DNA from: Patescibacteria group bacterium
Lineage (GTDB): Bacteria; Patescibacteriota; Minisyncoccia; Moranbacterales; JAKLHP01
Length of the DNA: 64,000 bases
NCBI GenBank assembly: GCA_043803385.1
Contig: JAZDKA010000034.1
Location: 10,561-74,560, forward strand
Direction of reading: 5' to 3'
The notes under the pieces are model-generated. The model searched no databases and was not told the DNA's origin. It was given only the letters and a program-made list of their open reading frames with translations. Made by a program: the position numbers and the translations under genes. Positions 4,778-52,285 of the stretch are shown piece after piece. Each line of letters begins with the position of its first letter. The stretch's first letter is position 1.

Positions 4778-5300
4778 AAATTATTTTTATTTTTTTCGCC
4801 AGATTTTTTATTGTTTCCAATTCTTCTTCTGAAAAATCTTGAAGTACAAAAACATCGCCGGGAATCACTCGGTTTTTTCTTTGCTCTATTCCTTCAATTC
4901 CGATTCGAGTTCTTTTGAAATTTCGAGTTCCGAGTTTATCGATGATGTCTTGCACGCCATTATGTCCGGCTGGTCCCGAATCGTTTGAGATTTTAAATTC
5001 GCCTAAGTTTATATCCAGGTCATCATGGATGACAGTAATATCTTCCGGAACCAGTTTGCAGAAATTGATTATTTTCCGGACTGCTTCACCGGATTCATTC
5101 ATAAAGGTTTGTGGTTTGGTTAAAATAATTTTATCGTTCTCAAAATTTCCTTCGGAGATATCCGCGTTGAATTTTTTGGAAAATTCAAAATCAGGAAAGT
5201 TCCATTCTCTCTTAAGCTCATCAAGAATTATAAAACCGGCATTGTGGCGATTGTTTTTATATTTTTCTCCGGGATTTCCGAGTCCGATTATTATCTTCAT
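4773..5300 (-). CDS. pth: Peptidyl-tRNA hydrolase
   Basis: MKIIIGLGNPGEKYKNNRHNAGF and the HDDLDI motif. The start was moved to the internal Met because the ORF's upstream extension is encoded by gaacat tandem repeats. Confidence 0.85.
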   Translation of the reverse strand: MKIIIGLGNPGEKYKNNRHNAGFIILDELKREWNFPDFEFSKKFNADISEGNFENDKIILTKPQTFMNESGEAVRKIINFCKLVPEDITVIHDDLDINLGEFKISNDSGPAGHNGVQDIIDKLGTRNFKRTRIGIEGIEQRKNRVIPGDVFVLQDFSEEELETIKNLAKKIKIIL

Positions 5301-5367
5301 GGAACATTGAACATAGAACATGGAACAAAATAGCCGTTTCATGTTTTATGCTATGTGTTATATGGTT

Positions 5368-14330: not shown

Positions 14331-15431
14331 ATGAAAGAAAAGTTTATTCCTAAAAGTTTTTATCTGCAATGGCACATAACGGAACGATGCAATTGGAGAT
14401 GCAAACATTGCTATCAAGAAAGTTATAAAACGCCAGAGATGAGCCTTGAACAGCTCTATGGCGTTTTAGACCAGTATCTGGCTTTAATAAAGAAGTGGAA
14501 TATTCCGAAAAGCAGAGCTCGAATGTCGTTAACTGGAGGAGAGCCTCTGATAAGATCCGATTTTTTTTCACTCTTAGCCAGAATGCATAAATTCGGCAAT
14601 TTTTTTAACTATACAATTTTGTCAAACGGTTCCCTTATTGACAAAGAAATTATAAAAAAACTTAAATTTCTGGGAGTAAATAATTTTCAAGTTAGCCTGG
14701 AAGGAATGGAAAAAAATAATGATGAAATAAGAGGAAAAGGATCTTTTCTGAAGGTGATAAATTCGATTAAGCTTTTATTGGATAACAAAATTCTAAATAT
14801 CAGAGTTTCTTTAAGCCTGAATAAAAAAAATGCTGGCGATGTTGAAAAATTAGCCGATTTTTTAACACCTATAGCTAAGGGGAAAGGTAATATAACTTTA
14901 GCCGCTCGAAGAATGGTTCCATGGGGAAGCGCTTCCGAAATGAAGGAATTCATTCAGGAGCCGTTAGAATTGAAAAATTTTTATGAAAGCGTCGAGCGGA
15001 TAAATAAAAGAATGACAGAAAAAAAATGTAATGTAAGAGTAGTGGGCGGATGCGAAAACGGCATTTTCAATGGTCTAGTTTCCAATAATTTAATGAGTAT
15101 AAGTCATTGCGGTATTGTTGACGGAAGGTTGATAATCGTTATGCCTAATGGAGACGTCCTTCCCTGCCGCCGTCTTCCTATTAAAGCAGGAAATGTCCTG
15201 AAACAATCGCTGGAGGAAATTTATTATTCCGATTTTATGGAAAAGTTGCGAAGTAAAAATAATAAACATAAACAGTGCAAAAATTGCGATAATTACCAAA
15301 ATTGTTTCGGCGGAGCCCCATGTGTTACCTATGCCTATACTGGAAAAATTAATATTCCTGATGTTCAATGCTGGAGAGCTTATGATAATCTAGAAGAAGT
15401 AAGAAATAATAAATATTCAGAAGAATTATGA
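14331..15431 (+). CDS. Radical SAM enzyme with a C-terminal SPASM domain
   Basis: CNWRCKHC (CxxxCxxC) near the N-terminus. The C-terminus has HCGIVDG...LPCRR and CKNCDNYQNCFGGAPC, which form a SPASM/twitch Cys pattern. Confidence 0.8.
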   Translation: MKEKFIPKSFYLQWHITERCNWRCKHCYQESYKTPEMSLEQLYGVLDQYLALIKKWNIPKSRARMSLTGGEPLIRSDFFSLLARMHKFGNFFNYTILSNGSLIDKEIIKKLKFLGVNNFQVSLEGMEKNNDEIRGKGSFLKVINSIKLLLDNKILNIRVSLSLNKKNAGDVEKLADFLTPIAKGKGNITLAARRMVPWGSASEMKEFIQEPLELKNFYESVERINKRMTEKKCNVRVVGGCENGIFNGLVSNNLMSISHCGIVDGRLIIVMPNGDVLPCRRLPIKAGNVLKQSLEEIYYSDFMEKLRSKNNKHKQCKNCDNYQNCFGGAPCVTYAYTGKINIPDVQCWRAYDNLEEVRNNKYSEEL

Positions 15432-16729
15432 AAATATGTTTTTTTTCTAAATATCCGCCTATTGAAGGAGGAGTTTCCTCTCGAACGTATTGGCTAGCCA
15501 AAGGATTGGGCAAGGCTGGACATGAAATTCACATCGTAACTAATGCTCTTGAAGTTGAGGATGAGTATCGAGAAAAGCTGGATTTTGAGAATCCGGAAGA
15601 GCTGGAAAAGTATCAGCCCCAAAATGTGTTTGTCCATTCCTTAAATTATGGGCCGCCGAAACATATACCATATTCCCAAGAATATTTAGCTCGACTCATT
15701 AATCTGGGTTTGGAAGTTGTCAGGGATTATGATTGCGATGTTATTGATTCATACTATTTTCTTCCCTATGGGTTAGCGGCGATGTTTGTTAAAATTCTTT
15801 CTGGAAAGCCGTTAATCATTCGCCATGCCGGAAGTGACATAACTCGGCTTTTTGGAAATGAGAATTTTCACACTATTTTTTTAGAACTTTTTAAAAATGC
15901 TGATTTTATAATTTCTAACCAAACGGTTAAAAATAGAATATTGGAGAGGCATAGGATAGAAAAGAACAAAATAATCACCGGAAAACTTTGGGGGGTGGAT
16001 AAAAATGAATTTAATCCCGACATAGAGCCGATCAATTTTAGAAAAGAATTTAGCATTGAAATTTCTCCGGAAACGCCAGTCATAACTTATATTGGTAAAT
16101 ATGACAATAATAAAGGAATAAACGAACTTTTGGAAGCTCTCTCTGGCATTGATGACGATTTTTTCCTTCTTCTTTTGGCAGGAGGCTTGCAGAACGAATT
16201 GCTTGAGAAAAAAATTTCTTCCTTTTCTTCGCTAAAAGGAAAGTATCTAATAGCGGGTTTTGTCCCTCCCTGGAAAATTCCGGCTATACTGAAAAGATCA
16301 AATTGCCTCGTTCAGCTGGAGAATAATTTTCCCATTAGTGTTCATATGCCCATACAGCCGCTGGAAGCATTTTCGGTTGGCACTCCTGTTATTTTGAGCA
16401 GTGAAATTTTCAATAAATATGAGGTAAAACTGGGACTCGTTGATCAAAAAAATGTTTTTACTGTCAATCCCCAGGATAAAGAACAACTTCGAAAGAAGTT
16501 GAAATTAATAATAAAAGATAATGATTTACGTCGCGATGTTGGAGAAAAATCGCTGGAAATCATTAGAAAAGATAATTTTGAAAGAGCCATAAAAAATAAT
16601 ATTGAAATTTATGAAACAGCAATTTCCAGGGGATTTCGCCTAAATTTAGTATATGAAGAAGTTTCCAAATCATTTTGGAATTTTTTTGAAGGAAATTTCA
16701 AAAATAAGATCAATAAATGGATAAAATGA
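15428..16729 (+). CDS. Glycosyltransferase family 4 (GT-B fold)
   Basis: KICFFSKYPPIEGGVSSRTYWLAKGLGKAGHEIHIVT at the N-terminus, with an EX7E-like region in the C-terminal half. Overlaps the radical SAM stop by 4 bp (atga). Confidence 0.75.
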   Translation: MKICFFSKYPPIEGGVSSRTYWLAKGLGKAGHEIHIVTNALEVEDEYREKLDFENPEELEKYQPQNVFVHSLNYGPPKHIPYSQEYLARLINLGLEVVRDYDCDVIDSYYFLPYGLAAMFVKILSGKPLIIRHAGSDITRLFGNENFHTIFLELFKNADFIISNQTVKNRILERHRIEKNKIITGKLWGVDKNEFNPDIEPINFRKEFSIEISPETPVITYIGKYDNNKGINELLEALSGIDDDFFLLLLAGGLQNELLEKKISSFSSLKGKYLIAGFVPPWKIPAILKRSNCLVQLENNFPISVHMPIQPLEAFSVGTPVILSSEIFNKYEVKLGLVDQKNVFTVNPQDKEQLRKKLKLIIKDNDLRRDVGEKSLEIIRKDNFERAIKNNIEIYETAISRGFRLNLVYEEVSKSFWNFFEGNFKNKINKWIK

Positions 16730-16763
16730 AGGTGTGCATAACTTTTTTCAATAATTGTCTTTT

Positions 16764-16785
16764 TGTGGTATAATTTTGGTATAAT
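16764..16785 (+). promoter_or_regulatory. Extended -10 promoter (tgtggtataat, then a second tggtataat)
   Basis: The TGnTATAAT motif occurs twice, 20-40 nt upstream of ATG 16804. Confidence 0.4.
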
Positions 16786-16803
16786 TTTATCAACAAAAAC
16801 ATT

Positions 16804-18111
16804 ATGATAAAATTAAAGTTTATGATTTTTGGAAATAAAAAGAAAATATTTCTTTTTTTGAGCTTTGCTTTATTTTTGCTAGCTGTTCCCTTATTTTTTC
16901 AACAGCTTCTTTCTAAAAAAGAAGCAGATGCCAATACCTTATTTAATAATCCTCAAAAGACTTTTCTCACTAATTACGGAGCTTATATATATGTTTTTAA
17001 TAGCGGAAATAAAACAATTACAAAAATCAGAACTAGCGATAGCAAAGAGATGCTCAAAATTAAATTTGACCCCGAACCTACTACAGTTTTTTATACGTCT
17101 CAATTTCAAAAAATTTACGCTCCTTCTTTTATTGATGGGAACGTAAGTATTTTAAAGCTACCAGGAGATGCTTCCGGCACCAAAACTATTTCTCTCGGCA
17201 AAATGATGCATTTGAAATTCAGGTCATTTTTATTTGATGCGGAAAATAAAAAACTTTTTGTTCTGGCCGAAAATTATGAAGAATCTCCCAATGGAGCTGT
17301 TTTAGTTATTGATTTGGAAAAAGATTCCATATCCAATGTAATCAAGCTAGATAGTAGCATTAGAGCTGACTTTTCCAGCCTTTCAAACGGGAAATTATTC
17401 GTTTACGATCCTTTAAAAAACGAGTTTTTCGTTATTGATTGCGGAAAAGAAGAAGTAAACAAAAAAATACAATTAGAGAGTGATGTCAAAGTAGAAGATT
17501 CCGTAATCTCGAAGCAAGGCAAAGTAATATATTTTTTAGCAGGGGGAAATCTCGTAGCACTAGATGCTGAATCAGGGAATATTATATCAAAACTAAAGGT
17601 TAAATCTGGAGTTAAAAAAATAAGAGCAGATGAAAACTCTGAACTAGTATATGTAGTTAGCTCTAGCGAAGATGAAACTAATGGTTTTTTGACGATGGCA
17701 GTTCCTAATGAAAATAGAATAATTTCAGAAGTTGAAGTTGGAAATAACCCGATCAATCTGTTTATCGGCAAAAATTATGTGTACGTGTTAAATAATGGAA
17801 GCAATTCTATTTCTGTGTTTGATAAAAAAACAAATAGAGTGGTCGGAACCATATCATCGGGAGGGCTTAACCCTATATATATGAATATTGATGAAAGTAA
17901 AGATATAATGTATATATCTAATTTTGCAAATAATACGATAGGAATTGTTGATTTAAATACGCAGAAACTGGTAGGCATTATTCCCGAAAAAGAGAATATT
18001 TTCAAGCAATACTGGTTGTTTATTGCCCTTTTTCTTTCGGCAATTATTTCATTAGTGCTTTTCTTTTTTCTGTCGAGTAGGACCAGCGGAGATAGCGCCT
18101 ATCAAGGTTAA
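16804..18111 (+). CDS. YVTN-family beta-propeller repeat membrane protein (N- and C-terminal TM anchors)
   Basis: Repeated YVxN blades: YIYVFNSGNKTITKI, YVYVLNNGSNSISVFDKKTNRVVGTI and MYISNFANNTIGIVDLNTQKLVGII. A C-terminal hydrophobic helix follows. Confidence 0.7.
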   Translation: MIKLKFMIFGNKKKIFLFLSFALFLLAVPLFFQQLLSKKEADANTLFNNPQKTFLTNYGAYIYVFNSGNKTITKIRTSDSKEMLKIKFDPEPTTVFYTSQFQKIYAPSFIDGNVSILKLPGDASGTKTISLGKMMHLKFRSFLFDAENKKLFVLAENYEESPNGAVLVIDLEKDSISNVIKLDSSIRADFSSLSNGKLFVYDPLKNEFFVIDCGKEEVNKKIQLESDVKVEDSVISKQGKVIYFLAGGNLVALDAESGNIISKLKVKSGVKKIRADENSELVYVVSSSEDETNGFLTMAVPNENRIISEVEVGNNPINLFIGKNYVYVLNNGSNSISVFDKKTNRVVGTISSGGLNPIYMNIDESKDIMYISNFANNTIGIVDLNTQKLVGIIPEKENIFKQYWLFIALFLSAIISLVLFFFLSSRTSGDSAYQG

Positions 18112-18131
18112 TAATTAAAGTTTTAATACAA

Positions 18132-18449
18132 ATGAGCAAAATCAGGAATAAATATAAAATTAAAAACTTTGTCTTGCTTTGCGCCGTTTTTATTGTGCTG
18201 GGACTTTTTAGCTTTATTTTTAAAAAAACAGGAATTGCAAATAGCAGTCATTTTGTAAAAATAGCCTCAGCAGATATTCCGTCTAGCGGTGGCAGTTGCA
18301 GCAGTTGCAACAGTTGCGGCGGTTGGGGCAGTTGCGGTGGCGGCGGCGGTGCCGGTTGCGGCGGCAGTGCCGGCGGTTGTGGCGGTGCCGGTTGCGGTGG
18401 CGGTTGTGGCGGTTGCGGTTGTGGCGGTTGCGGTGGCGGTTGTGGCTAA
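18132..18449 (+). CDS. Small membrane-anchored protein with a C-terminal Gly/Cys-repeat tail
   Basis: ATG start, a TM helix, then SCSSCNSCGGWGSCGGGGGAGCGGSAGGCGGAGCGGGCGGCGCGGCGGGCG, and a stop directly after the repeat. An alternative frame has no start context. Confidence 0.5.
   Translation: MSKIRNKYKIKNFVLLCAVFIVLGLFSFIFKKTGIANSSHFVKIASADIPSSGGSCSSCNSCGGWGSCGGGGGAGCGGSAGGCGGAGCGGGCGGCGCGGCGGGCG
18286..18449. repeat. GC-rich (about 70% GC) coding microsatellite of degenerate 12-mers (ggyggyggttgy)
   Basis: Read directly from the sequence. It contrasts sharply with the low-GC background. Confidence 0.7.
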
Positions 18450-18497: not shown

Positions 18498-19340
18498 ATG
18501 AAATTTGTATCGAAGAATAGGAAATCGTTGCTAATATATATTCTGTTGCTGGTGTTTGTTTTGTCCAGTTGTTTGTTCGGAAATGATATAAAAAAATTAA
18601 TTTCCGCGAAGATTTTTATAGGAGCAGAATATTATTTTAACGGAGGAAAGTATAATCTGAATAAGGCGGAAAAATTATATAAAATTTCACTCAAAATAAA
18701 CTCGGATATCCCCATAGCCCATTATCAGCTGGGAAGAATCTATTTTTTAGGCGGAAAATTCGACTTAGCGATTGCTGAATTCGACAAAGAACTGAAAAAC
18801 AATCAGGAAAGCAAGCATCCGTATTATATGCGAGGGCTGACAAACGGTTACGCTGGAAATTACGATGAAGCGATTTCTGATTTGCAAAAATATATCGCCT
18901 GGAATCCAAAAACTTGGGCAGGATATAACGATTTGGTTTGGGTATATTTGCTGAAAAAAGATTATCAAAAGGCCGAAGAATCATCCAGAAAAGGCCTGGA
19001 AAACAGTTCAAATAATCCCTGGCTTCTTTCAAACTTAGGCACTGCTCTTTTGAATCAAGAAAAATATCAAGAAGCGAAAGAAAAATTAACTTTGGCCAAA
19101 GATTTTGGAGAAAAACTTACCGCACAAGATTGGTCAAAGACTTACCCGGGAAATGATCCGAGAATTGCCGAATCAGGACTCCGGGATATGAAAGCGGCGA
19201 TTCAGCTCAATATCGCTATTGCTTCCAAACGGATGAACCGGAAAGAAGAAGCCAAAAAAGAATATGAAGAATATCTAGCTATGCTTCCGGAAGATGATAA
19301 CAGAAGGGTATCAGTAGATTATTTTTTGTTAATGCCGTAG
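18498..19340 (+). CDS. TPR-repeat lipoprotein
   Basis: Lipobox-like LLVFVLSSC followed by several TPR-like 34-residue repeats (AHYQLGRIYFLGGKFDLAIAEFDKEL...). Confidence 0.7.
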   Translation: MKFVSKNRKSLLIYILLLVFVLSSCLFGNDIKKLISAKIFIGAEYYFNGGKYNLNKAEKLYKISLKINSDIPIAHYQLGRIYFLGGKFDLAIAEFDKELKNNQESKHPYYMRGLTNGYAGNYDEAISDLQKYIAWNPKTWAGYNDLVWVYLLKKDYQKAEESSRKGLENSSNNPWLLSNLGTALLNQEKYQEAKEKLTLAKDFGEKLTAQDWSKTYPGNDPRIAESGLRDMKAAIQLNIAIASKRMNRKEEAKKEYEEYLAMLPEDDNRRVSVDYFLLMP

Positions 19341-19343: not shown

Positions 19344-20495
19344 ATGAAAAAAAATAAAAAAATATCAATAATATCTTCATCCATCTTTTTAATAATGTTG
19401 TTTTCAATGGCCCTTTTCTTTTTATGGTTTCACGGTGTTGGAAATAACAGTCCTTTTTCAGTTGAAGCGAAACTTTTTTCCTTTTCCGGCATTCAAAATG
19501 GCGCTCCTCTTTCCGCTTCCTGCGACGCCGCGCCTCCTTACGAACATACTCCAGGAGAATTCGACAATCCAACGATCACTGTTGCTAAATTAGGTGTCGG
19601 GGCAGGAAGCATAACTGTGTGCAATGATTCTATGAATTGTAAAATTACAGGTTGCGCAGGTATATGCTCTGCAACCTATGGTCGGGGAGAAAATATTATG
19701 GTCGGCAGAAGCCCTATCTATCCTCCAACCGTTTTTTCCGGATGGGGAGGAGATTGCAGTGGCCAACTATGCAATTTGACGATGGATTATTGCAATAAAT
19801 ATGTGACAGGTACGTTTGATCTTAATTATACTCTTTATGTTGCCAAGGCAGGAACAGGCTCTGGTACTATAACTTCAAATCCAGTGGGGATAAATTGCGG
19901 AGCGGATTGCACGGAGTCGTATGTGGATGGAACATCAACAGTTCTTACTGCCGTTGTCGATACCGGTTCAACTTTTGCGGGTTGGAGTGGAGATTGCAGC
20001 GGGACTGACTTATGCAATTTAACGATGGATAATACCAAATCAGTTACGGCTACTTTTAATTCTAATAATCCAACGCTCACTGTTAAAAAAACTGGAACCG
20101 GAACAGTAACTTCGGATCCAACTGGAATCAATTGCGGTACCACTTGTTCTGCAACTTACCCTCTCAATACTTCCGTAACGCTTACCGCTAATCCGCTAAC
20201 GGGAGTATTCAGCGGAGGGTGGTGTAATTATGGTAATGGTGTTGGTACTTGCAACGTTGGCATGAGCAGATCAAAAGAAGTTACGGCTACTTTTAGCAGC
20301 AGTTGTGGGGTATTTTCATGTGTTAAAATAAATTCTGTTTGCAATGGATGCGGAGGTACAGCGACAGGAACAGCAATATGTATTGATTCTTGTAATAATG
20401 TTGATTCTTCAAAATGTAGCAACTGTTCTCCTGAAACGATTAACTGCTCCGCTTGCTCTAATTCTGACGCTAACTGGAAAGAAGTAGCGCCGTAA
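19344..20495 (+). CDS. Cys-rich surface protein, paralog 1 (3 divergent InlB-B-like repeats, ends NWKEVAP)
   Basis: Signal/TM N-terminus. Repeats of the form AKAGTGSGTITSNPVGINCGADC..Y..GT..LTA....GSTFAGWSGDCSG...C.LTM....VTATF. A Cys-rich C-terminal module. Confidence 0.8.
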   Translation: MKKNKKISIISSSIFLIMLFSMALFFLWFHGVGNNSPFSVEAKLFSFSGIQNGAPLSASCDAAPPYEHTPGEFDNPTITVAKLGVGAGSITVCNDSMNCKITGCAGICSATYGRGENIMVGRSPIYPPTVFSGWGGDCSGQLCNLTMDYCNKYVTGTFDLNYTLYVAKAGTGSGTITSNPVGINCGADCTESYVDGTSTVLTAVVDTGSTFAGWSGDCSGTDLCNLTMDNTKSVTATFNSNNPTLTVKKTGTGTVTSDPTGINCGTTCSATYPLNTSVTLTANPLTGVFSGGWCNYGNGVGTCNVGMSRSKEVTATFSSSCGVFSCVKINSVCNGCGGTATGTAICIDSCNNVDSSKCSNCSPETINCSACSNSDANWKEVAP

Positions 20496-20532
20496 AATGA
20501 CAGTTGACAGTTGACAGTTAACATTTGACAGC

Positions 20533-20561
20533 CAGTCCCGATTTGTCGGGACTGGTTTTTC
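20533..20561 (+). terminator. Rho-independent terminator
   Basis: ccagtcccgatttgtcgggactgg (a 10-bp stem) followed by ttttt. Confidence 0.7.
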
Positions 20562-20594
20562 GTTATCTGCAGGTCATTCAGTTTTAATTTCTTT

Positions 20595-20605
20595 TGTGGT
20601 ATAAT
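20595..20605 (+). promoter_or_regulatory. Extended -10 promoter element tgtggtataat
   Basis: Lies 43 nt upstream of ATG 20648. The same 11-mer recurs upstream of several other genes. Confidence 0.45.
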
Positions 20606-20647
20606 AAAACTAGTAAAAAAGTTAACTTGATAGGGGAAATAAAAAAA

Positions 20648-23600
20648 ATGAAAATGAAATTAATAAGGGTTGCTTTAATTGCCATTTTTATTTTTGCTAT
20701 CTTGCCATTTTCTGTTAAAGCTCAAAATTTGACAACCAGTGAAACTGTTTCTAATTCAACCAGATCCGGATTTGAAACTAGAGGTGGAATGATTATTTCT
20801 CAAGAAGCAAACAAACTAAAAATTCTCTTCGGGGCAATTAATAATGAAGAAGTAATTCAACCAGGAGTTCAATATTCGATTCAATTAATTCATAAAGAAT
20901 ATGGATATCTCGTTGATGAGAAAGTTTTTCCGGAAGTGATTAGCATCGGCAAAAAAGAGAAAATATCTAAAGAAATAGAATATCAGGCACCGGAATTTCT
21001 TAATGGAGATTACTTAATTTTTATCGTTTTCAGGAACTCCAAGGCCAATATATTGGGTACGGATATAATTGGAAAAGTTTCCCTAAAAGGAAGTGAGGGA
21101 TATGTCAATATAAACACATGTTTATTGTCAGTTAAAGACGATAAAATTAAAAACGAATTTTTTCCAAATGGATACCCAATTAATGCTGGAATCGATCTTG
21201 CTCCAGAAGAGGAATTAATCGCCAAATGTAAAATTTCAAATAATTTTAGCGAAGCGGTTGAGTTCACTCCTCAATTTGAGAATTATTTTCGTTCAATATT
21301 CGGAACTCTGATTTCCACCGAGAAACAAAGTTCTGTCAATATCAATGCCGGAGAGACAAGAGAAGTTTCCTTTACTGTTCCAAAAATTTCCAAACCCCAA
21401 GCCTATGATGCGGTATTATCCCTTTTTAATAATGGAGAAATTATTTCCAATAAAATCGTTTTTCATTATGTCATTCAAGGATTTTCCGGGACTATTCAAA
21501 ACTTGCTTTCCGATGAAGCTACCTATCAAAAAGGAGAAACGGCCAAAATTTCTTTCTATTTGACCGGATCGGCTGATTATTTTCCGGGTGCCAGGGGCCA
21601 AGGATCTCGCTTGGAAGGCGGAGTGATGGAAATTTCAATAAGCAATAAAGATGGGTCAAAATGTTCCGAAACGGTCCAAAAACAGTTGACGTCAATTAAA
21701 GAATTAACCAATCAAAAGCAAGGTTTAGAAGTTCCAATTATTGCGGATTGTTCTCTTCCGCAAATAAAAGCGGAATTTAAGGATCGCAACGGCAACGTGC
21801 TGGATCGAGCTACTTATAATATTTTTAGTAATGATGCGGAGAAGAAAGAACTTGAAAAAGAAAAAAGCGCCGAGAAAAAAATGAATAAATGGATTTTAAT
21901 TTCTGGTTTGATATTGATTATTTTGTTAATCTCCGTTTTAGCTTATCTTTTTTATAAAAAAAAATCTGAAAATAAAAGCATAGCGACACTTATTGGTATA
22001 TTAGCAGCAACAGGAGTTTTCTTTCTTTGGGGAGGTGTTTCTTATGGAGCCAGTGTAAATTTCTCCGCACCCGCCTTAAATGAAGACTGGTCATCTATAC
22101 CCGTTACAGGATTTCTGGGAACAGAAGGGGGTATATATGGGGAAGATGAAGTAATATTTAGTCCCGGGCAAGAATTTCTAATAGGTGCTAAAGAAGCATA
22201 TACTCTGGTATGTTCTAATAGTGAAGTAGTAAGAGCTCATGTCAACGCAACCGTATTGGATTCAAACAATACAGTGATAAGTGAAAAAAAGTCATTCCTC
22301 CCAAATATAGTATATTATTCAGATGGATCACCGTGGTATTTATATATATCATTTCATTGGTATAATGCACCGATGATTCCAGGTAGTTACAAAGTTGAGT
22401 TTGAAGCTTATGAAGCATTGAGTAATGTAGGAGTTGCATATTTAAATTTTAAAGTTATGGCTCCCAATCCAATTTTAGCGGTCAATAAAGCCGGAACCGG
22501 TTCAGGAACTATAACCTCCGATCCGGCGGGAATAAATTGCGGAACGGATTGTGCAGAATCTTATGTACAGGGAACATCGGCAACTCTTACCGCCACTCCC
22601 GATGCCAATTCAACCTTTGCTGGTTGGAGCGGAGATTGTACGGGAACTGGCCCATGCAATTTGACAATGAATACTAATAAATCAGTGACGGCTAATTTTA
22701 AAATCAATACTCCGCCTACGGCTGAAGCCGGAGGACCATATGCGGTTCCGCGCAATGGCACGGTTACAATTGATGGATCTCAATCTTCCGATCCGGATGA
22801 AATATTAAGCAATTTAGCTTTTAATTGGGATTGTAATAAATGTATTAATGGTGGAGGAAATAATGGTAATTGCCCAGGATACGCGAATATGAGATACGTT
22901 GGCTTTAAGAGTTTTACTTTTAATCCTAATGCAAATTTCAATACCGGATACAATGCTAAAGCCGGCAATGTTTTCACCTGTACCCTAACTGTAACAGACA
23001 ATAAAGGTGCTACGAGTACTGATACGGCCACAATTACTGCTACTGAAACAGCACCCAATGCTCCTACTGGTTTAACTGCCACTGCTCCTTCCTGTTCTAG
23101 TGTTACTCTTACTTGGGTCGATACTTCCGACAATGAAACCGGGTTTAAAATAGAACGCTCCGCTAATTCTAATGGTCCCTGGACTCAGATTGCCACCACG
23201 GCTGCTAATGCTACTTCCGCTGACACTATTGCGGCTGCTACCACCCAATATTACTATCGAGTAAGAGCCACAAATTTAATTGCTGATTCGGATAATACAA
23301 ATGTTGCCGGAGCTTATGTGCCAGCTTGTACTAATGTAAATCTTAGTCTTTACACATCTAGCTGCAGACAATCAGTTCTTTATATAAGTTCAAATTATGA
23401 GTTTGACTATTATACAATACGTAAATGGTATTATAGCAGCTGGTGGGGTTGGTATTATAATGGTCAATATAATCTATGGACTAATCGGAGCGATCATCTT
23501 TATAAATATTATGATAATAATGTTTCGTCGGGTTCTTTTTATGGTTATCAAGTATATGGTTGCTATAATTCTGGTCAATGCCCTTCTGCTTCCCTGTTTT

Positions 23601-25141
23601 ATTGGATTTATATCCCATCATGTCCCGCTCTCAATCTTTCAATCAGCCCGTCAGCTGTTGCTTGCGGGGCATCGTCTGGCGGTGCTTCTAGCTTAACCTG
23701 GAGTTCTACGAATGCCAACTATTGCATTCCTAGTGGCACTAACTGGCCGGGAAATCCTGCCCAGCTTCCAACTTCTTCAAATTTAGCTCCTTTAGTAAAT
23801 AAAACTATAATTTCTCCTACTTCTTCTCAAACTTATAGTTTGACATGCTATGGTGCTGGCGGATCAATTACTAAAAGTGTTAATCTTGGCTGCTCCTGTA
23901 CGGCAAATAACTGTGCTGATAATATATGTGGAAATGAGCAGTGTTATAATGGTTGCATTTGGGTTTGGGGTAATATGCCTGTCCGTTCTCTCTCTATAAC
24001 CAAAGCCGGTACCGGCTCCGGCACCGTTACCGGTAGTCCGGCTGGCTGTAGTTCTGCTGGCATCAACTGCGGTCCTACTTGTTCGGCAACGTACAAATAC
24101 GATACTGCTGTCAATTTAACTGCTACTGCTTTCACTGGCTCTGAATTTACTAACTGGTCAAATGCTTGCAACGGTACCGCTAATTCTTGCACAGTTTTCA
24201 TGAGAAATAATTATTCAGTAAATGCTAACTTTAATGCCAAAACCCTTAATGTTTCTTTAACTGCTTCTCCGCCTTCCGGCAGTCAGCCTTTAACTTCCAC
24301 TCTAACGGCTAATGTTTCTGGCACGTCCGTTGGAACGATTAATTACAAATTTTACTGCAACCGCAATGACGATGGCACTAATATTACTCAACCAGTTGAT
24401 GGAAAATTTGACGGTGAATCAGCCACCAGCAAATCGTTCAATTGTACTTATTCAACCCCCGGCGCTTTCTTTCCAAAAGTTATTGTGGAGCGGGATAGTG
24501 GTGTGCCAAATGCAACTGATAAAAAAACAGTGACGGTTGCTGCAATTCTTTCCATTGACAAAACCGGTACTGGCTCCGGCTCCAGCACAGTTATCAGCAT
24601 TCCGCCTGGCATCAATTGCGGTCCTACTTGTTCGGCTTCATATAATTACAATACCCTCATTGCTTTAACCGCCACTGCCATTCCTTCTACTGATTTTGCT
24701 TTTGCCGGCTGGTCAGGAGCTTGCTCGGGCACTGGTCCCTGTACGGTTACTATGAATGAAGCCAAATATGTGACCGCTAATTTTGGTTGCGAAATTAATG
24801 ATTGTCCGCCTGGATCGGTCAGCTGTAGCGGAAACAGTAGGGTAGTTTGTTCTGAAGTTCCTGTGGGAAGTGGGTGTTATAGAAATATAACAATAGATTG
24901 TGGAATAGAAACATGTGTTGATGGATCATGTCTTCCGAAACAACCAGGAGTATGTGGTGATGCGCAAGACATAATTTGGGACAAATCACCCAATAGTGAA
25001 TTTTGCAATTCATTCGGAGGATATACGGAACCAATCAGGGAAGGTGAAAGTTGGTGCTGGACATGCATTGGAATGCTTGGCGGGTCAGATACGGAATGTT
25101 GCGCGCAGAGAGATTTGAATTGGAAGGAAATAGCGCCGTAG
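20648..25141 (+). CDS. Giant Cys-rich surface protein, paralog 2 (ends NWKEIAP)
   Basis: Signal peptide and an N-terminal domain of about 400 aa that is paralogous to the one in 25822-28605. A TM hairpin follows, then four divergent InlB-B-like repeats, a PKD-like segment, an FN3-like segment and a Tyr/Trp-rich stretch. Ends with a Cys-rich C-terminal module. The start was moved to ATG 20648 (MKMKLIRV). Confidence 0.8.
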   Translation: MKMKLIRVALIAIFIFAILPFSVKAQNLTTSETVSNSTRSGFETRGGMIISQEANKLKILFGAINNEEVIQPGVQYSIQLIHKEYGYLVDEKVFPEVISIGKKEKISKEIEYQAPEFLNGDYLIFIVFRNSKANILGTDIIGKVSLKGSEGYVNINTCLLSVKDDKIKNEFFPNGYPINAGIDLAPEEELIAKCKISNNFSEAVEFTPQFENYFRSIFGTLISTEKQSSVNINAGETREVSFTVPKISKPQAYDAVLSLFNNGEIISNKIVFHYVIQGFSGTIQNLLSDEATYQKGETAKISFYLTGSADYFPGARGQGSRLEGGVMEISISNKDGSKCSETVQKQLTSIKELTNQKQGLEVPIIADCSLPQIKAEFKDRNGNVLDRATYNIFSNDAEKKELEKEKSAEKKMNKWILISGLILIILLISVLAYLFYKKKSENKSIATLIGILAATGVFFLWGGVSYGASVNFSAPALNEDWSSIPVTGFLGTEGGIYGEDEVIFSPGQEFLIGAKEAYTLVCSNSEVVRAHVNATVLDSNNTVISEKKSFLPNIVYYSDGSPWYLYISFHWYNAPMIPGSYKVEFEAYEALSNVGVAYLNFKVMAPNPILAVNKAGTGSGTITSDPAGINCGTDCAESYVQGTSATLTATPDANSTFAGWSGDCTGTGPCNLTMNTNKSVTANFKINTPPTAEAGGPYAVPRNGTVTIDGSQSSDPDEILSNLAFNWDCNKCINGGGNNGNCPGYANMRYVGFKSFTFNPNANFNTGYNAKAGNVFTCTLTVTDNKGATSTDTATITATETAPNAPTGLTATAPSCSSVTLTWVDTSDNETGFKIERSANSNGPWTQIATTAANATSADTIAAATTQYYYRVRATNLIADSDNTNVAGAYVPACTNVNLSLYTSSCRQSVLYISSNYEFDYYTIRKWYYSSWWGWYYNGQYNLWTNRSDHLYKYYDNNVSSGSFYGYQVYGCYNSGQCPSASLFYWIYIPSCPALNLSISPSAVACGASSGGASSLTWSSTNANYCIPSGTNWPGNPAQLPTSSNLAPLVNKTIISPTSSQTYSLTCYGAGGSITKSVNLGCSCTANNCADNICGNEQCYNGCIWVWGNMPVRSLSITKAGTGSGTVTGSPAGCSSAGINCGPTCSATYKYDTAVNLTATAFTGSEFTNWSNACNGTANSCTVFMRNNYSVNANFNAKTLNVSLTASPPSGSQPLTSTLTANVSGTSVGTINYKFYCNRNDDGTNITQPVDGKFDGESATSKSFNCTYSTPGAFFPKVIVERDSGVPNATDKKTVTVAAILSIDKTGTGSGSSTVISIPPGINCGPTCSASYNYNTLIALTATAIPSTDFAFAGWSGACSGTGPCTVTMNEAKYVTANFGCEINDCPPGSVSCSGNSRVVCSEVPVGSGCYRNITIDCGIETCVDGSCLPKQPGVCGDAQDIIWDKSPNSEFCNSFGGYTEPIREGESWCWTCIGMLGGSDTECCAQRDLNWKEIAP

Positions 25142-25232
25142 AATTCTAGCTTACAACATACAACATACGACTGACAACAAATAATTTGCAACTCACAACT
25201 ATTTTATAACTAATAATTTAATTTAAAAAAAT

Positions 25233-25694
25233 ATGGAAAGCGGAATTAAAAAATTAATAATTATACTGGTTGTCCTGGCTATTTTGGCAGGAGGAGGATT
25301 TTATATCTTTAGGCTTCTAGCGAGATCATGTAATTTCAGCCAATTGCCTTCTGATTTTCCTACTCCTTCTGTTATTCCTCCAACCGCGAATAAAAATCAA
25401 ACTCCGGCTGGCGTTGAAGAAAATAATCAGCCAGTTCAGCCAGGACAACCAGCGCAGGCAAATGATGAAATCAGGGAAGTAAAAGGGAAAGCCACAGGTA
25501 TTAATGGAAACTTTATTTTTGTGGAAAGTGAAAGCGAACTTTTCCAATTGGGAATCAATGCTCAAACTCCAGTTTTTACCTTAACCGGAACAGAAAAGAC
25601 AAAAGCCGGACTGCCGGATATTAAAATAAACGGGGGAGTCTCGGTAAAATACGATTATCTGAAAAATGCCACGGAGATTGTTATCGGGGAATAA
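25233..25694 (+). CDS. Hypothetical membrane-anchored protein
   Basis: N-terminal TM helix and a Pro/Gln-rich linker. Confidence 0.5.
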   Translation: MESGIKKLIIILVVLAILAGGGFYIFRLLARSCNFSQLPSDFPTPSVIPPTANKNQTPAGVEENNQPVQPGQPAQANDEIREVKGKATGINGNFIFVESESELFQLGINAQTPVFTLTGTEKTKAGLPDIKINGGVSVKYDYLKNATEIVIGE

Positions 25695-25768
25695 GGCAAA
25701 GCAATATCAACTTTTCAAAACCGGGCTTTAGGAATTTCCAAAGCTCGGCTTTAGTTATAATGACAAAT

Positions 25769-25779
25769 TGTGGTATGAT
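25769..25779 (+). promoter_or_regulatory. Extended -10-like element tgtggtatgat
   Basis: A variant of the recurrent tgtggtataat motif. tataat also occurs at 25756-25761. Confidence 0.35.
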
Positions 25780-25821
25780 AAAGTTGTCAAGAAGTTAACT
25801 CGACTGGGGGAAAATAAAAAA

Positions 25822-28605
25822 ATGAAAACAAAATTAAAATTAATAACGCTAATTGGCGTCGGAATTTTTTGCTTTGCGTTTGCGGTTAATGCTCAGACAC
25901 CAGGACCATTATTGCAGGAAGGTTTTCTTGTCGCTACGGTCAACATCTACAACGCCGCTTTAGCCAGTCAGTCGTCTGACGGATTGCATATTGTTTTTGA
26001 CTTAAGTAATCGCGTTAATGTTCAGCCACAAGTTAAATATGCAGTGAATCTAGCGAAAGAAGAAAAAGACAGTCAGATAATTATTGATACAAAAATCTAT
26101 CCGGAAGAAATTTCTCTCAAAGAAAATGAAACTATCAATAAAAAAATTACCTATGTTCCGCCGGCTTTCTTAAGCGGCGACTACAAACTTTATATTGAAG
26201 CTAAAAATCCCGAAGGTCTCATTTTGGCTATGGCTTATATTGGAGACGTTCAGCTAAATGGAAATAATCAGGGTCTTTTTCTTGATCCAGCCGCTTGCCA
26301 TCTTACTTTGGAAGGAGACGAGACTCAAAAAAAATATACCTTGCAGGGGGTGGATGTAAAACCGGAAGAAAATATTTTGCTTAATTGCGAAGTGGAGAAC
26401 AAATTTAATTCTTCCATAACAGTTATTCCTAATGTTGCCACTTACTACCGTAGCGTCTTTGGTAAATTCCTCGGCGCCAAAGATTTTGAGTCTATCACTC
26501 TTAATAAAGGCGAAAAGACAGTTAAATCTTTTGTCCTGCCCAAAGCCGTTGACCCTCAATCTTACGACGCTGTCCTTACTTTTTACAACGAACGAAAACA
26601 GCTCATTTCCAATCAAATTATCGCTCATTATATAATTCAAGGACCCAGCGCCACCATTCAAAATGTTCTTTTGGACAAAGCGGTTTATCAAAAAGGGGAA
26701 ATTGCTAAACTCTTTTTTTACTACACCCAGTCGGACAGCAATTTTCCTGGTTCCCGCAGTGGCATTACAGATATAGGTGTTCTGACTGCTAGTATTAATC
26801 TTAAAAATCAAAATAATCAAAACTGCGCCGATCTATTTCAAAAAGAATTAACCGAAAAAGAAAGTTTTTTTAACTTTGGCATACCCATTATTAATACTTG
26901 TCAGAGTCCTCAAGCCGAAGTGGTTATTAAAGGCAAAGACAGCCGGGTATTGGCCCAAAATACTTTTAAATTTTTCAATGAAGAAAAAAAAGAATCCGAG
27001 ACCGGCGGCAAAACAGCCGCCAACAAGCAGGCGATGATCATTATTTTAATAGTTATTATTTTAATCGCTATTGTTGCAACTTACTTTATCAAGAAAAAAT
27101 TAAATAAATCCAATAATTTCAGTTTATTTATTTTTCTCTTTATGTTTTTGGTTATCGCAGGAATGTTTACGGGCGAAATAGCAAAAGCAGACACATATGC
27201 TGCTGGTTATGGCATTACAGTTAATTACGGCTTAAACAAAAAGGTGTATTCCCCCGGGGAAACTATGTCTTATTATCTTTCTGCCTCTAGACCCGCTATT
27301 ATGTGGAATGCTACAGCTTCAATGAATGGCGTTACGCGAAGTGGCAATTATGGTGGATATGGTACAAATACTACTATTTATCTCTCTTTTACTGCTCCGA
27401 ATAACTCAGGTAATAATTTGGTCTCTTCTTCCGCTGCTATTTGGGCTCAGTGTGATTGGTTTCTCTACTGCTCCTATACCGTTCAACTTCCAGCTCTTTC
27501 TTCTAGCGTTCTTGGTGACGGCGTTTGTGGTTCTTCTAATGGTGGAAATTCAGGCGTTGCTCCAACTGTTAATCTTTGTAGCGCAGGGGCTGCTTCGGCT
27601 GTATCCGGCTCTGGTCCCTGGACTTGGACCTGTACTGGATCTCCTGGGTACTCAATCGCTACTTGCGGAACTAATCTTTTAACCCGAACTCTTACCGTCA
27701 ACAAAACTGGCACTGGCTCGGGTACTGTCACTAGCACTCCTGCGGGCATCAACTGCGGTTCTGATTGTTCAGCTTCATATAATGACGGTACTTCCGTTAC
27801 TTTAACCGCCACTCCTTCGGAGGGTTCTACTTTTACTGGATGGTTAGGCGCTTGTTCGGGCACTGGCGCCTGCACGGTTAAGATGATTGCGGCTAGATCT
27901 GTAACCGCTACTTTTAAGAGTTATAATTTAACTGTCACTAAAACCGGCACCGGCTCTGGCACAGTTACTCCTTCAACTGGAACTTTAACTTGGTCCGGTA
28001 AAAGCGGTTCAGCTTCGTATTATTACAACACTCCCATTACTTTAACCGCTGCATCTGACACCGGCTCTACCTTTACCGGCTGGTCAGGTACAGGCATTAA
28101 ATGTCCTGGCACCGGTGATTGTACGGTTATCATGACTGTATCTAGGTCTGTGAGAGCTAATTTTAATATTAATACTTATTTTTTAACCGTTACCAAAAAT
28201 GGTACCGGTTCGGGTACTGTTAGAAGTAATTGGTGGGGCATTAATTGTGGTTTTACTTGTTCGGCAAAATATAATTACAATACCTCTGTCACTTTAACCG
28301 CCACGGCTGCTGCTGGTTATACTTTCACCGGTTGGTCAGGAGATTGTTCTGGCAATAGTGCTTGCGTGGTAACTATGGATGCGGCTAAATTTGTAACAGC
28401 TACATTTAATTCTTCCTGCATTCCGAATTCTGCTTGCATCTCGATAACTCCTGATTGTTCAACTAATTGCGGCAAGTCGGTAAGTTCTCAAACATGCATA
28501 GATCTAAATAATTGTGGAACTAGCTTTTCTTGCAGTCCTCCTTGTAGTGGAACGACAACCTGTCCCGCTTGCTCTGACACTAACTGGAAAGAAGTGGCGC
28601 CGTAA
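25822..28605 (+). CDS. Giant Cys-rich surface protein, paralog 3 (ends NWKEVAP)
   Basis: Signal peptide and the paralogous N-terminal domain. A TM hairpin follows, then four divergent InlB-B-like repeats and a Cys-rich C-terminal module. The start was moved to ATG 25822 (MKTKLKL). Confidence 0.8.
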   Translation: MKTKLKLITLIGVGIFCFAFAVNAQTPGPLLQEGFLVATVNIYNAALASQSSDGLHIVFDLSNRVNVQPQVKYAVNLAKEEKDSQIIIDTKIYPEEISLKENETINKKITYVPPAFLSGDYKLYIEAKNPEGLILAMAYIGDVQLNGNNQGLFLDPAACHLTLEGDETQKKYTLQGVDVKPEENILLNCEVENKFNSSITVIPNVATYYRSVFGKFLGAKDFESITLNKGEKTVKSFVLPKAVDPQSYDAVLTFYNERKQLISNQIIAHYIIQGPSATIQNVLLDKAVYQKGEIAKLFFYYTQSDSNFPGSRSGITDIGVLTASINLKNQNNQNCADLFQKELTEKESFFNFGIPIINTCQSPQAEVVIKGKDSRVLAQNTFKFFNEEKKESETGGKTAANKQAMIIILIVIILIAIVATYFIKKKLNKSNNFSLFIFLFMFLVIAGMFTGEIAKADTYAAGYGITVNYGLNKKVYSPGETMSYYLSASRPAIMWNATASMNGVTRSGNYGGYGTNTTIYLSFTAPNNSGNNLVSSSAAIWAQCDWFLYCSYTVQLPALSSSVLGDGVCGSSNGGNSGVAPTVNLCSAGAASAVSGSGPWTWTCTGSPGYSIATCGTNLLTRTLTVNKTGTGSGTVTSTPAGINCGSDCSASYNDGTSVTLTATPSEGSTFTGWLGACSGTGACTVKMIAARSVTATFKSYNLTVTKTGTGSGTVTPSTGTLTWSGKSGSASYYYNTPITLTAASDTGSTFTGWSGTGIKCPGTGDCTVIMTVSRSVRANFNINTYFLTVTKNGTGSGTVRSNWWGINCGFTCSAKYNYNTSVTLTATAAAGYTFTGWSGDCSGNSACVVTMDAAKFVTATFNSSCIPNSACISITPDCSTNCGKSVSSQTCIDLNNCGTSFSCSPPCSGTTTCPACSDTNWKEVAP

Positions 28606-28710
28606 ATATTTAGCTAACAACTAACAACTGATAACATATAACTGACAGTATTAGAAAACCGGCTTTTGTATTTGAGGCTGGTTTTTGTTATAGGCTGTGG
28701 ATAACTTTGA

Positions 28711-31727: not shown

Positions 31728-31840
31728 ATTTCTAATTATTCTAATTGACCTAATTAACCTAAAAAAATTCCAATGAATTAATTTCTAAATTTGGGATTTG
31801 GGATTTGATTAGAAATTAGAAATTAGAAATTAGAAATTTC

Positions 31841-32536
31841 GTGATACTTGGCGGTTATCAAAAGTTGACCCTTATTGATTATCCCGGAAAATTGGCAACC
31901 ACTGTTTTTACCGTCGGTTGCTCTTTTCGCTGCCCATTTTGCCATAATCCGGAATTAGTTCACAGTTCACAGTTCACAGTTCACAGTAATTTGGAAAAAG
32001 AGTTCTTTAAGTTTTTAAGTAAGAGAAAAGAAAAGCTGGAAGGGGTTTGTATTACTGGAGGTGAACCTACTATTCAGCCCGATTTAGTGGGTTTTATTAA
32101 TAAAATAAAGAAGATGGGATTTCTGGTAAAATTGGATTCTAACGGAAGCCGGCCGGATGTCCTTAAAAAAATTATTGGCGGAAAAATGGTGGATTTTATC
32201 GCCATGGACATCAAAAATTCTCCGGAGCGCTATAGCGAAACTAACGGGGTAAAAACCGACATTGAAAGAATAAAATTGAGCGTAAATATGATAATGAATA
32301 GCAGTATTCCATATGAATTTAGAACGACAGTTGTTCCTGGAATTCACACAGAAAAGGATTTTGACCAAATTGCCAAATGGATAAAAGGGGCAAAAGCATA
32401 TTATCTTCAGGAGTATCGGGAAATTAAAATCCTAGATCCGAAACTCAAAAAGAAGACTAAGAATAAAAAAATAAATTTGGAAAAAATAAAAAAGAAAATA
32501 GAGAAAAATTTTAAGTTTATGGGAATCAGAGAATAA
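31841..32536 (+). CDS. nrdG: Anaerobic RNR activating radical SAM protein (GTG start)
   Basis: LIDYPGKLATTVFTVGCSFRCPFCHNPEL (CxxxCxxC). Confidence 0.8.
   Translation: MILGGYQKLTLIDYPGKLATTVFTVGCSFRCPFCHNPELVHSSQFTVHSNLEKEFFKFLSKRKEKLEGVCITGGEPTIQPDLVGFINKIKKMGFLVKLDSNGSRPDVLKKIIGGKMVDFIAMDIKNSPERYSETNGVKTDIERIKLSVNMIMNSSIPYEFRTTVVPGIHTEKDFDQIAKWIKGAKAYYLQEYREIKILDPKLKKKTKNKKINLEKIKKKIEKNFKFMGIRE
31957..31987. repeat. Heptamer tandem repeat (agttcac) x4.4 inside nrdG
   Basis: Read directly from the sequence. It encodes VHSSQFTVHSN. Confidence 0.7.
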
Positions 32537-45643: not shown

Positions 45644-45668
45644 AGTTAAATTTTTTAAATATAAAAAA

Positions 45669-46187: not shown

Positions 46188-46260
46188 ATTTTCTAATTTT
46201 ATTACACTTTTCGATCCCGGATGTTTTGAAAAGCAACTGGAATCTAAAAAGGTAAAACAT

Positions 46261-47049: not shown

Positions 47050-47072
47050 ATGTTCTAAAATTTAGTTAAGTT

Positions 47073-48740: not shown

Positions 48741-48831
48741 GTTTGACATTTGACAACTGACAATTGGCACAAAAACTATTAATAATTGGTCAATAGTTAA
48801 TTGTCAATAGTTAATTGTTAAATAAATTTTT

Positions 48832-49206: not shown

Positions 49207-49333
49207 AAGTTAAAAGTGCAAAGTTAAAAGTTTAGGTGTTGCTTCGCGACAAATTATTTTATCATAATAAATACGTCCCGCTTGCGGGACACTATAATTT
49301 TGAACTTTGAATTTTGCATTTTGAATTATTATT

Positions 49334-50410: not shown

Positions 50411-50476
50411 TGCAGGACATTTACCCTGTATTTATCATGTGGTTACCCTGTTAAATAAAAATTTTAAATTAATTGT

Positions 50477-52218: not shown

Positions 52219-52285
52219 AAATTAGCTATGTGGTATAATATAAATTGATTGAATATAAATATAAAAAATAGAAAGGCGGTGAAAT

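Follow-up and report, generated by a model that had tools for sequence, protein, structure and literature searches.

The window analysed here, 64,000 nucleotides from a Patescibacteria group bacterium (assembly GCA_043803385.1, contig JAZDKA010000034.1, positions 10,561 to 74,560), carries on its plus strand three open reading frames (ORFs), p1, p2 and p3, that encode proteins of 383, 1515 and 945 amino acids with nearly identical ends. Their last residues are SDANWKEVAP, RDLNWKEIAP and SDTNWKEVAP, respectively. Each stop codon follows the proline with nothing between, and no other ORF of the window ends in NWKE[VI]AP. (Should internal ATGs at 20648 in p2 and 25822 in p3 be the true starts, these two proteins shorten to 1497 and 927 amino acids.) Directly upstream of p1 lies the gene for a tetratricopeptide repeat (TPR) protein, and the window also contains a type IV pilus cluster. 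A sequence-only reading of the locus had proposed that the shared terminus is a new C-terminal sorting or processing signal. The evidence described below supports NWKE[VI]AP as a conserved, strictly C-terminal signal that has neither a named model nor a published description.

Divergent InlB B-repeats (Flg_new_2, PF18998), noticed already in the sequence-only reading, are recognized by Pfam in all three proteins, with 54, 89 and 104 bits for p1, p2 and p3 against a threshold of 23.6 (E 1e-14 to 5e-30). In p2, Pfam finds PKD, fn3 and Big_9 domains as well, and the same 'cargo' part of the protein includes a GxCG...WxWxC module. The Cys-packed region said to precede the motif is there, with 14 cysteines in the last 120 residues of each protein, but it is no part of the signal, because elsewhere the tail also follows Cys-free and PKD sequences, and InlB repeats directly. 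The DNA of the tails had been called conserved. The proposed string does occur exactly in p1 and p3 (no matches are expected in shuffled sequence), whose tails are identical at 23 of 24 nucleotides, but the tail DNA of p2, AATTGGAAGGAAATAGCGCCGTAG, departs from theirs at 4–5 positions out of 24, which fall at synonymous sites, in the Val-to-Ile codon and in the stop.

The N-terminal regions of p2 and p3 are alike over ~470 amino acids, at 35% identity (over 489), which makes these genes old, distant paralogues rather than recent duplicates; the seven terminal residues have nonetheless been kept. This N-domain (~450 amino acids) is a family of its own. Most of its relatives are stand-alone proteins of 420–450 amino acids, in which an all-beta ectodomain lies between a signal peptide and a C-terminal transmembrane (TM) helix, the latter followed by a basic tail. 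Five loci (L087, L101, L089, L018 and L112) have the N-domain as a separate gene, with a tail-bearing gene that encodes its own signal peptide immediately after it. Fusions of the two are found in p2, p3 and about a dozen further proteins, where that signal peptide corresponds to the second hydrophobic segment. Since the two parts are separate, adjacent genes elsewhere, the pair of hydrophobic segments in each protein (amino acids 422–441 and 451–474 in p3), taken earlier for a TM hairpin, is a fusion junction. Signal peptidase would be expected to cut after the second segment (e.g. between ...AKA and DT in p3). AlphaFold2 models the N-domain as three to four beta-sandwich domains with a predicted local distance difference test (pLDDT) score above 90; the model resembles arrays of macroglobulin domains, at a low TM-score. 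Upstream of the obvious ATG of both p2 and p3 (20594–20647 and 25768–25821) there is an in-frame, conserved stretch of 18 codons, MWY[ND]K..KK....GE.KK, which begins at a TTG, and this could be an N-terminal extension or a conserved 5′ leader.

The motif is not confined to these three genes. The degenerate DNA pattern AAYTGGAARGARRTNGCNCCNTRR, scanned over one genome per GTDB species (1.19e12 positions), has 112 matches in 109 loci, against ~17 expected at uniform composition (4^-15 x 2^-6 x 1.19e12). About 68 of the matches lie at the very end of an ORF that encodes 100 amino acids or more, in metagenome-assembled genomes (MAGs) of Patescibacteria type, labelled Moranbacteria/Moraniibacteriota, Woesebacteria, Parcubacteria, Portnoybacteria or 'Patescibacteria group', and in some cases 'uncultured Bdellovibrionales'. 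In these genes, as in the window trio, the stop directly follows the proline, so that neither a TM helix nor a basic tail comes after the motif. A MAG has several such tail proteins, as the window has three. The remaining matches are the expected noise (e.g. an out-of-frame ORF replicated in Acidobacteriaceae, and an internal NWKEIAPW in an ABC-transporter binding protein). Across the GTDB loci, W[KRQ]E[VI]xP is terminal 78 times and internal four times, all four in substrate-binding proteins of ABC transporters from outside the candidate phyla radiation (CPR). Across loci chosen for their TPR genes without regard to the tail, it is terminal 15 times and never internal.

Codon use in 75 genes that end in the motif points to the peptide as the conserved entity. 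All synonymous sites vary, Ala and Pro each using all four codons and Val four, and this free variation implies that selection acts on the peptide and not on the DNA. The DNA 3′ of the stops is unrelated between genes, and often a terminator. The stop codons themselves are TAG in 44 genes, TAA in 21 and TGA in 10, a share of TAG that seems high for genomes of low to medium GC content. One tail gene on the minus strand (L041, stop at locus position 1590) is followed, before the terminator, by two more tandem copies of a 41-nt unit made up of the last ~22 nt of the gene (some tail codons and the stop) and 19 nt downstream.

Searches for an existing description came back empty. A scan of viral contigs for the motif gave no matches, and an exact look-up of p1 gave no record. 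With the full proteins, nothing in Pfam or NCBIfam covers the C-terminal tail at E<=0.1 (there are only below-cutoff matches to repeats and TM regions), and seven isolated tails match nothing in either database at E<=10. Neither the motif strings nor the subject of CPR sorting signals leads to anything relevant in the searchable literature, and in a recent catalogue of C-terminal sorting signals there is no mention of CPR or of TPR partners. The earlier impression that this is no described signal agrees with Pfam, NCBIfam and the literature, none of which has an entry naming the motif. Neither of the two outcomes that the sequence-only reading would have accepted as its refutation, restriction of the motif to the three genes or an existing name for it, is thus what is seen.

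Some of the labels attached to these loci deserve comment. Many MAGs labelled 'uncultured Bdellovibrionales' (L008, L009, L015, L021, L027, L029 and others) have loci near-identical to those of Moraniibacteriota, the tail region of L021, for example, matching L068 and L091, and the labels are probably wrong. Similarly, L044 bears the label 'Nanoarchaeota' but has its match in the Patescibacteria locus L023, probably through mis-binning. L070 (OY762209.1), from a 5.5-Mb chromosome labelled Syntrophorhabdaceae, encodes an N-domain–cargo fusion ending in NMNWKEVAP, and a small anchored protein, where the local GC content is 43%; horizontal transfer or a chimeric assembly could account for this, or the proteins may truly occur beyond the CPR.

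NWKE[VI]AP is the commonest form of a wider tail, [WYF]-x-E-[VI]-x-P-COOH, and its related forms. Clear homologues end in NWREVAP, NWIEVAP or NWREVEP; relatives found through the N-domain end in YKEVSP, YEEVAP, YREVLP, WQEVIP, WKEVSP or SWTEVNP; and a set collected through the TPR protein, described below, has the consensus W(F/I/L/Y)-[KIRE]-E-[VITF]-[ANI]-P-COOH. Tails of this last set mostly measure six residues from aromatic residue to carboxylate, some having one residue more (-IIPR, -LPQ) and some being truncated (-[LF]EE[FI], e.g. F-E-E-F-COOH). What precedes the tail is varied: a disulfide module, C..C...[FY]..D.CG...C.G.R.C[DN][YF]-NWKEVAP; a Cys-free domain, RDLG...EYAPDQ..LFP...RRI-NWKEVAP, in large proteins of Woesebacteria type; PKD, TSP1, fn3 or Ig domains; the GxCG...WxWxC module, as in p2; or an InlB B-repeat without any intervening module. 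At the other end, the tail-bearing proteins begin with ordinary Sec signal peptides. Over this range of contexts, the tail is a modular element appended to Sec-exported, adhesin-like surface proteins.

The TPR protein is the best candidate for a partner. Pfam assigns to it TPR_2, TPR_16 and related models, and the NCBIfam models PilW, NlpI, Tgl, MamA and PrsT all match it below their cut-offs (e.g. 40 bits versus 154 for PilW, TIGR02521, and 26 versus 225 for Tgl). Its best natural sequence match in the PDB is PilF (E 1e-6). AlphaFold2 predicts a TPR superhelix for a homologue, P0027, with a pLDDT of 97–98 over residues 20–265, and PilF is among the Foldseek matches of the predicted TPR structure, with a TM(target) of 0.69. 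The N-terminus of the window protein has a lipobox-like VLSSC, whereas those of the homologues are plain TM anchors without the cysteine. Over and above the generic TPR consensus, the family has nearly invariant Arg, Gln, Asn and Trp residues, in HYQLARIYF, WAGYNDLAW, NPWLLN and YPGNDP, and these fit a conserved, putative binding site.

Four loci besides the window (L007, L038, L041 and L099) have the TPR gene immediately upstream of a tail gene on the same strand, and in the closest relative of the window locus, L193, the TPR gene is followed by a cargo gene ending in NWKEVKP. A metagenome scan seeded with the window TPR protein kept 80 loci of 253 relatives. For 33 of the metagenomic TPR genes the next gene downstream is complete, and in 26 of these neighbours the protein has a family tail at its end, including NWKEVAP, NWRE[VI]AP, [WF]xEIIPR, FIEVLPQ, FEEVEP and [LF]EE[FI]. 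In three more (L163/L164, 6821–8572, and L191, 6716–8059) a core of FREVFAP or FKEVFAP lies internally, followed by a hydrophobic or amphipathic extension of 12–17 residues; such proteins could be precursors, or else variants that are anchored in another way. Where TPR and cargo are fused into one ORF, seven of nine end in tails of WKEV[ATV]P or WIETNP type. Altogether, the tail is fused to, or comes right after, TPR in 33 of 42 metagenomic cases, compared with 6 of 714 background ORFs of the same loci (Fisher p 2e-43), a value uncorrected for relatedness that overstates independence because some of the loci are near-duplicates.

Among 1.84 billion cluster representatives, searched exhaustively with HMMER, 171 are TPR relatives at E<=1e-30. 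About 38 of the best 150 have the order TM anchor, TPR, Cys-rich region and variable domains, and ~30 of these fusions carry the tail (WKEVAP, WREVAP, WIETNP, WKEIIPR or similar). The fused cargos are domains of extracellular type behind a single N-terminal TM segment, which places the TPR part outside the cytoplasm. When all ORFs in 69 tail loci were clustered in search of a universal partner, no family besides the tail proteins recurred in more than ~8 loci.

Proteins encoded right after TPR share something at their N-termini, too: the motif S.SP.G..GG.[IV][IV]PASC or W[TS][EQ]..G.G[IFL]..PAC behind a signal anchor (cargos of L117–L191). This 'N-motif' is present in p1 (window positions 19476–19523), and its ...AC form marks the junction after TPR in the TPR–cargo fusions.

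The neighbourhood is, repeatedly, that of a type IV pilus. In the window the pilus cluster lies 16 kb downstream, and ComEC, ComFC-like and DprA genes are also present. In nine metagenomic loci the TPR–cargo pair heads a pilus operon, in the order TPR, cargo, PilB, PilC, pilins or TPR, cargo, ComF-like, PilM/N/O, PilB (operon maps: L131, L143, L147, L160–162, L182 and L188). Pairs of N-domain and cargo genes come directly after PilB in L021, L029, L032, L033, L087 and L101. The small anchored protein encoded between p2 and p3 belongs to a family without a Pfam or NCBIfam match, members of which lie directly before or after tail genes, on the same strand, in seven loci, and it is a possible further component of the system.

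Table 1. Features of the window, and members of the 153-aa family in other loci
Feature	Position	Strand	Remarks
TPR protein	18498–19340	+	280 aa; N-anchored, extracytoplasmic; lipobox-like VLSSC at aa 21–25; candidate tail receptor
p1	19344–20495	+	383 aa; signal anchor, N-motif FSFSGIQNGAPLSASC (aa 45–60), InlB B-repeats, Cys-rich region (nt 20295–20471), tail; directly after TPR gene
p1 tail	20472–20492	+	NWKEVAP; stop 20493–20495
p2	20594–25141	+	1515 aa; signal peptide, N-domain, TM and basic stretch, signal-peptide-like TM, cargo, tail
p2 fusion junction	21890–22051	+	TM1 aa 433–454, KKKSENK, second hydrophobic segment aa 463–486 ending ...SYGA
p2 tail	25118–25138	+	NWKEIAP; stop TAG 25139–25141
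Small N-anchored protein	25233–25694	+	153 aa; between p2 and p3
p3	25768–28605	+	945 aa; p2-like: N-domain, junction (nt 27031–27189), three InlB B-repeats, Cys-rich region (28408–28581), tail
p3 tail	28582–28602	+	NWKEVAP
Type IV pilus cluster	44438–56604	+	PilM, possible PilN (position only, no Pfam match), PilO, PilB, PilT, PilC, prepilin peptidase, three pilins, PilX-like; from Pfam
Period-7 arrays after tail stops	20498–20531, 25152–25179, 28614–28629		
Other period-7 arrays	5298–5327, 31808–31838, 31957–31987, 48743–48766, 49198–49327, 54764–54794, 57784–57850, 62212–62326		
153-aa family members, other loci	L070 1123–1527; L051 3443–4039; L101 4624–5196; L104 1518–2129; L046 5706–6032; L088 3006–3308		

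Two other features of the window may be mentioned. Dozens of short tandem arrays with a 7-nt period are scattered over it, several of them perfect, and some come right after the stops of p1, p2, p3 and pilB. Others lie inside ORFs with the frame kept (in an NrdG-like activase, at the 5′ end of a pilin gene, and at amino acids 107–129 of an NAD-ligase). Heptamer arrays also follow the stops of tail genes in L018, L057, L058, L083 and L112. Scored as at least 20 of 28 period-7 matches, they occur at 8 of 85 tail genes and 11 of 1022 other ORFs, with no such excess at other periods. The second feature, just upstream of the TPR gene (14331–18449), is a cassette like those for ribosomally synthesized and post-translationally modified peptides. 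It encodes a radical SAM/SPASM enzyme, a GT4 glycosyltransferase, a YVTN beta-propeller with a C-terminal TM segment, and a 105-aa N-anchored peptide, the C-terminal half of which is almost pure Cys/Gly (CGGC-type repeats). The best NCBIfam match of the cassette enzyme is the ACGX-system maturase TIGR04340, at 154 bits versus a cut-off of 400. L193 has a small protein of 92 amino acids (72–350), rich in Cys, Gly and Asp, upstream of its TPR gene.

How might such a tail work? We suggest, at somewhat under an even chance, that it docks in the groove of the TPR protein, as the end of the secretin RcpA docks in the pilotin TadD. The tail would then be a short linear motif on adhesin-like proteins, the free C-terminus of which enters, non-covalently, the concave groove of a PilF/TadD-like TPR protein. 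Contacts would be made by the aromatic residue, the invariant Glu, the aliphatic residue and the free carboxylate of Pro. One TPR protein would serve several tail proteins—in the window, p1, p2 and p3—and docking would hold, or organize, these modular adhesins at the cell surface by the type IV pilus machinery. In TPR–cargo fusions, binding might take place in cis, or head-to-tail. In p2 and p3, the macroglobulin-like N-domain with its own TM anchor would be a separate unit, and the second hydrophobic segment would serve as an internal signal peptide for the part that bears the tail. We infer both the physical binding and its biological role from this pattern of linkage, fusion and likeness. 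The sequence-only reading had left the choice between a peptidase, a ligase and an anchoring factor; the comparative evidence favours the last, a factor for anchoring or docking in the form of the TPR protein, and no candidate peptidase or ligase emerged. The picture can be drawn larger: a radiation-wide, enzyme-free form of surface display, in which a pilotin-like TPR protein, repurposed in cells that lack an outer membrane, reads a tail of six to seven residues, [WYF]-x-E-[VI]-x-P-COOH, and loads or clusters interchangeable adhesins at, or on, the type IV pilus machinery with which these episymbionts find and hold hosts. This larger version is tentative, and we consider it less likely than docking as such.

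Several observations weigh against docking to TPR. The TPR gene lies within 8 kb in only 5 of ~66 GTDB tail loci, so that a many-to-one relation has to be assumed. In the AlphaFold2 model of the natural fusion P0027, built from a 99-sequence alignment, the tail (residues 453–458) has a pLDDT below 50, next to 97–98 for TPR; this is a weak test, the model being a monomer with a 180-residue linker of low confidence. The cargo of a fusion is already anchored by the TM segment of TPR, hence retention alone cannot explain the tail there. Linkage of the TPR gene could reflect the N-motif that the cargos share, rather than the tail. The TPR tree is not cleanly sorted by class of tail, and the match of one clade to WIETNP is confounded with phylogeny. 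And finally, two more anchored families, the N-domain family and the small 153-aa family, recur as neighbours.

These last bear on the alternative that survives best, that the tail docks to another partner in the envelope (the N-domain anchor, the 153-aa family, the pilus fibre or minor pilins, or the wall or S-layer) and that TPR is a co-operonic assembly factor. Genes for the N-domain nearly always precede, or are fused to, those for a tail protein (19 ORFs in GTDB loci, P0001–P0009 and L112), the 153-aa protein adjoins tail genes, the persistence of the tail in TPR–cargo fusions that are already anchored suggests a third-party target, and TPR, N-domain and cargo are all set within pilus operons. 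On the other hand, the last 40 residues of an N-domain–cargo fusion are modelled by AlphaFold2 at a pLDDT of ~30, with the tail not docked on the N-domain, and L110 has the N-domain and a cargo without a tail. No precedent is known for beta-sandwich arrays as readers of a free C-terminus, which TPR grooves do read, and the 153-aa family is present in only seven of the ~66 loci. On balance, we find this alternative rather unlikely.

Enzymatic processing is a further alternative. The tail could be the substrate signal of an enzyme—a peptidase, transpeptidase or ATP-grasp-type ligase—that trims it, or joins it covalently to peptidoglycan, lipid or protein. Extreme conservation, a strictly terminal position and a free carboxylate would all suit such a signal, and signals in a many-to-one relation are usually paired with a dedicated enzyme (LPXTG, PEP-CTERM and GlyGly-CTERM; Haft preprint, 10.1101/2023.06.07.544157). 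The window does encode a protein of the LCP family and signal peptidase I, but Pfam finds no sortase or exosortase in the ~50 of its ORFs that were scanned, no protease, sortase or ligase recurs beside tail genes in ~150 loci, and the substrate has neither a TM helix nor a basic tail by which it could be kept at the membrane. Processing of this kind seems improbable to us. Two particular chemistries were considered and rejected: one with the Lys as nucleophile, or isopeptide formation (N, K and E are all in the motif), because R, Q, I, E or T replaces the Lys in clear homologues; and an Asn-endopeptidase site, because the position ahead of the aromatic residue is not constant.

The residues might instead be no signal at all, but simply the point where the structure of the domain before them ends, or a motif inherited within one protein family. 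Many Moranbacteria proteins do have the tail contiguous with the conserved disulfide module, and the TPR-adjacent cargos form one similarity group. Yet at least four unrelated C-terminal contexts precede the tail, Cys-free ones included; it is never internal in the sampled CPR loci and survives divergence of its flanks to 35% identity; and in the AlphaFold2 models it is not packed against the module before it. This we take to be very improbable. Lastly, an element at the level of the DNA (a recombination or regulatory site), or chance, might be suspected from the near-identity of the p1 and p3 tails and the heptamer repeats after all three stops, but has next to no likelihood given the variable synonymous sites, the different DNA of p2, the unconserved downstream DNA, heptamers that are common over the window and not specific to tail genes, and the excess of matches over expectation; conservation of the DNA as such is refuted by the codon data.

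Much of bacterial diversity belongs to the CPR/Patescibacteria, the members of which live attached to other cells. For the display and organization of their adhesins, a simple C-terminal tag that can be searched for would allow the likely surface, or host-contact, proteome to be listed for thousands of uncultured genomes. The TPR family and its link to pilus operons, moreover, provide a receptor–ligand pair that can be tested with a short peptide and a soluble TPR domain. Were docking to prove true, the pilotin principle, in which a TPR protein reads the last residues of its partner, would extend from the secretins of diderms to adhesins of cells without an outer membrane, and the C-terminal sorting signals of prokaryotes would gain a class that lacks a TM segment.

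Of the known systems, those with tripartite signals (LPXTG/sortase, PEP-CTERM/exosortase, GlyGly-CTERM/rhombosortase, PGF-CTERM/archaeosortase and MYXO-CTERM) resemble the CPR tails in that a short C-terminal signature is found on unrelated secreted proteins of one genome. They differ in that the CPR tail lacks a TM helix, a basic tail and any model match, and it is therefore not a tripartite signal of the sortase type; rhombosortase, like sortase and exosortase, is absent from the Pfam results for the window and from the recurrent neighbours. C-terminal recognition without a TM segment, up to the free carboxy terminus, is seen in two other settings. The beta-signal of outer-membrane proteins is the last strand of the barrel, ending in an aromatic residue, and is read by BAM, of which BamD is a TPR lipoprotein; WxL is a wall-binding C-terminal domain of ~200 amino acids in Firmicutes. 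Neither Pfam family matches proteins of the p1–p3 type.

Closer in form are the eukaryotic TPR grooves that read free C-termini: Hop and CHIP bind the EEVD-COOH of Hsp70/90, and PEX5 the SKL-COOH of PTS1. These, too, recognize a strictly C-terminal motif with its free carboxylate, one receptor serving many cargos, and some CPR tails even read EEV (YEEVAP, FEEVEP) or end in -EEF. The eukaryotic systems are cytosolic, however; and homology is limited to the TPR fold.

The pilotins are the nearest comparison. PilF, PilW and Tgl have a superhelix of about six TPRs and are encoded in pilus clusters, like the CPR protein, although the latter falls below the NCBIfam cut-offs for PilW and Tgl. In the Tad pilus of Pseudomonas aeruginosa, the PilF-like TPR pilotin TadD has a positively charged groove for the last 4–5 residues of the secretin RcpA; there the terminal acidic residue is in contact with a conserved Arg, and the Leu with a hydrophobic patch (PMC10499894). 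According to the same paper, PilF apparently makes no use of the PilQ C-terminus. The window protein is likewise PilF-like, and its family occurs in pilus loci, paired with or fused to proteins with an acidic and hydrophobic C-terminal tail. The partners differ: apparently many-to-one, they are diverse adhesin-like proteins and not a secretin, they carry PKD, InlB-B, BACON, CARDB or no domain, and none of them matches the PilQ/Secretin family. CPR envelopes lack an outer membrane; the TPR protein is N-anchored, by a TM segment or a lipobox-like sequence, in the cytoplasmic membrane and is often joined to its partner in a single polypeptide, and binding is proposed. The window TPR should not, then, be filed as a pilotin, but it probably works like one. 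What appears new in comparison with all these systems is a C-terminal tag without a TM segment, spread over the sampled Patescibacteria lineages, apparently many-to-one, and with a candidate TPR reader in pilus loci.

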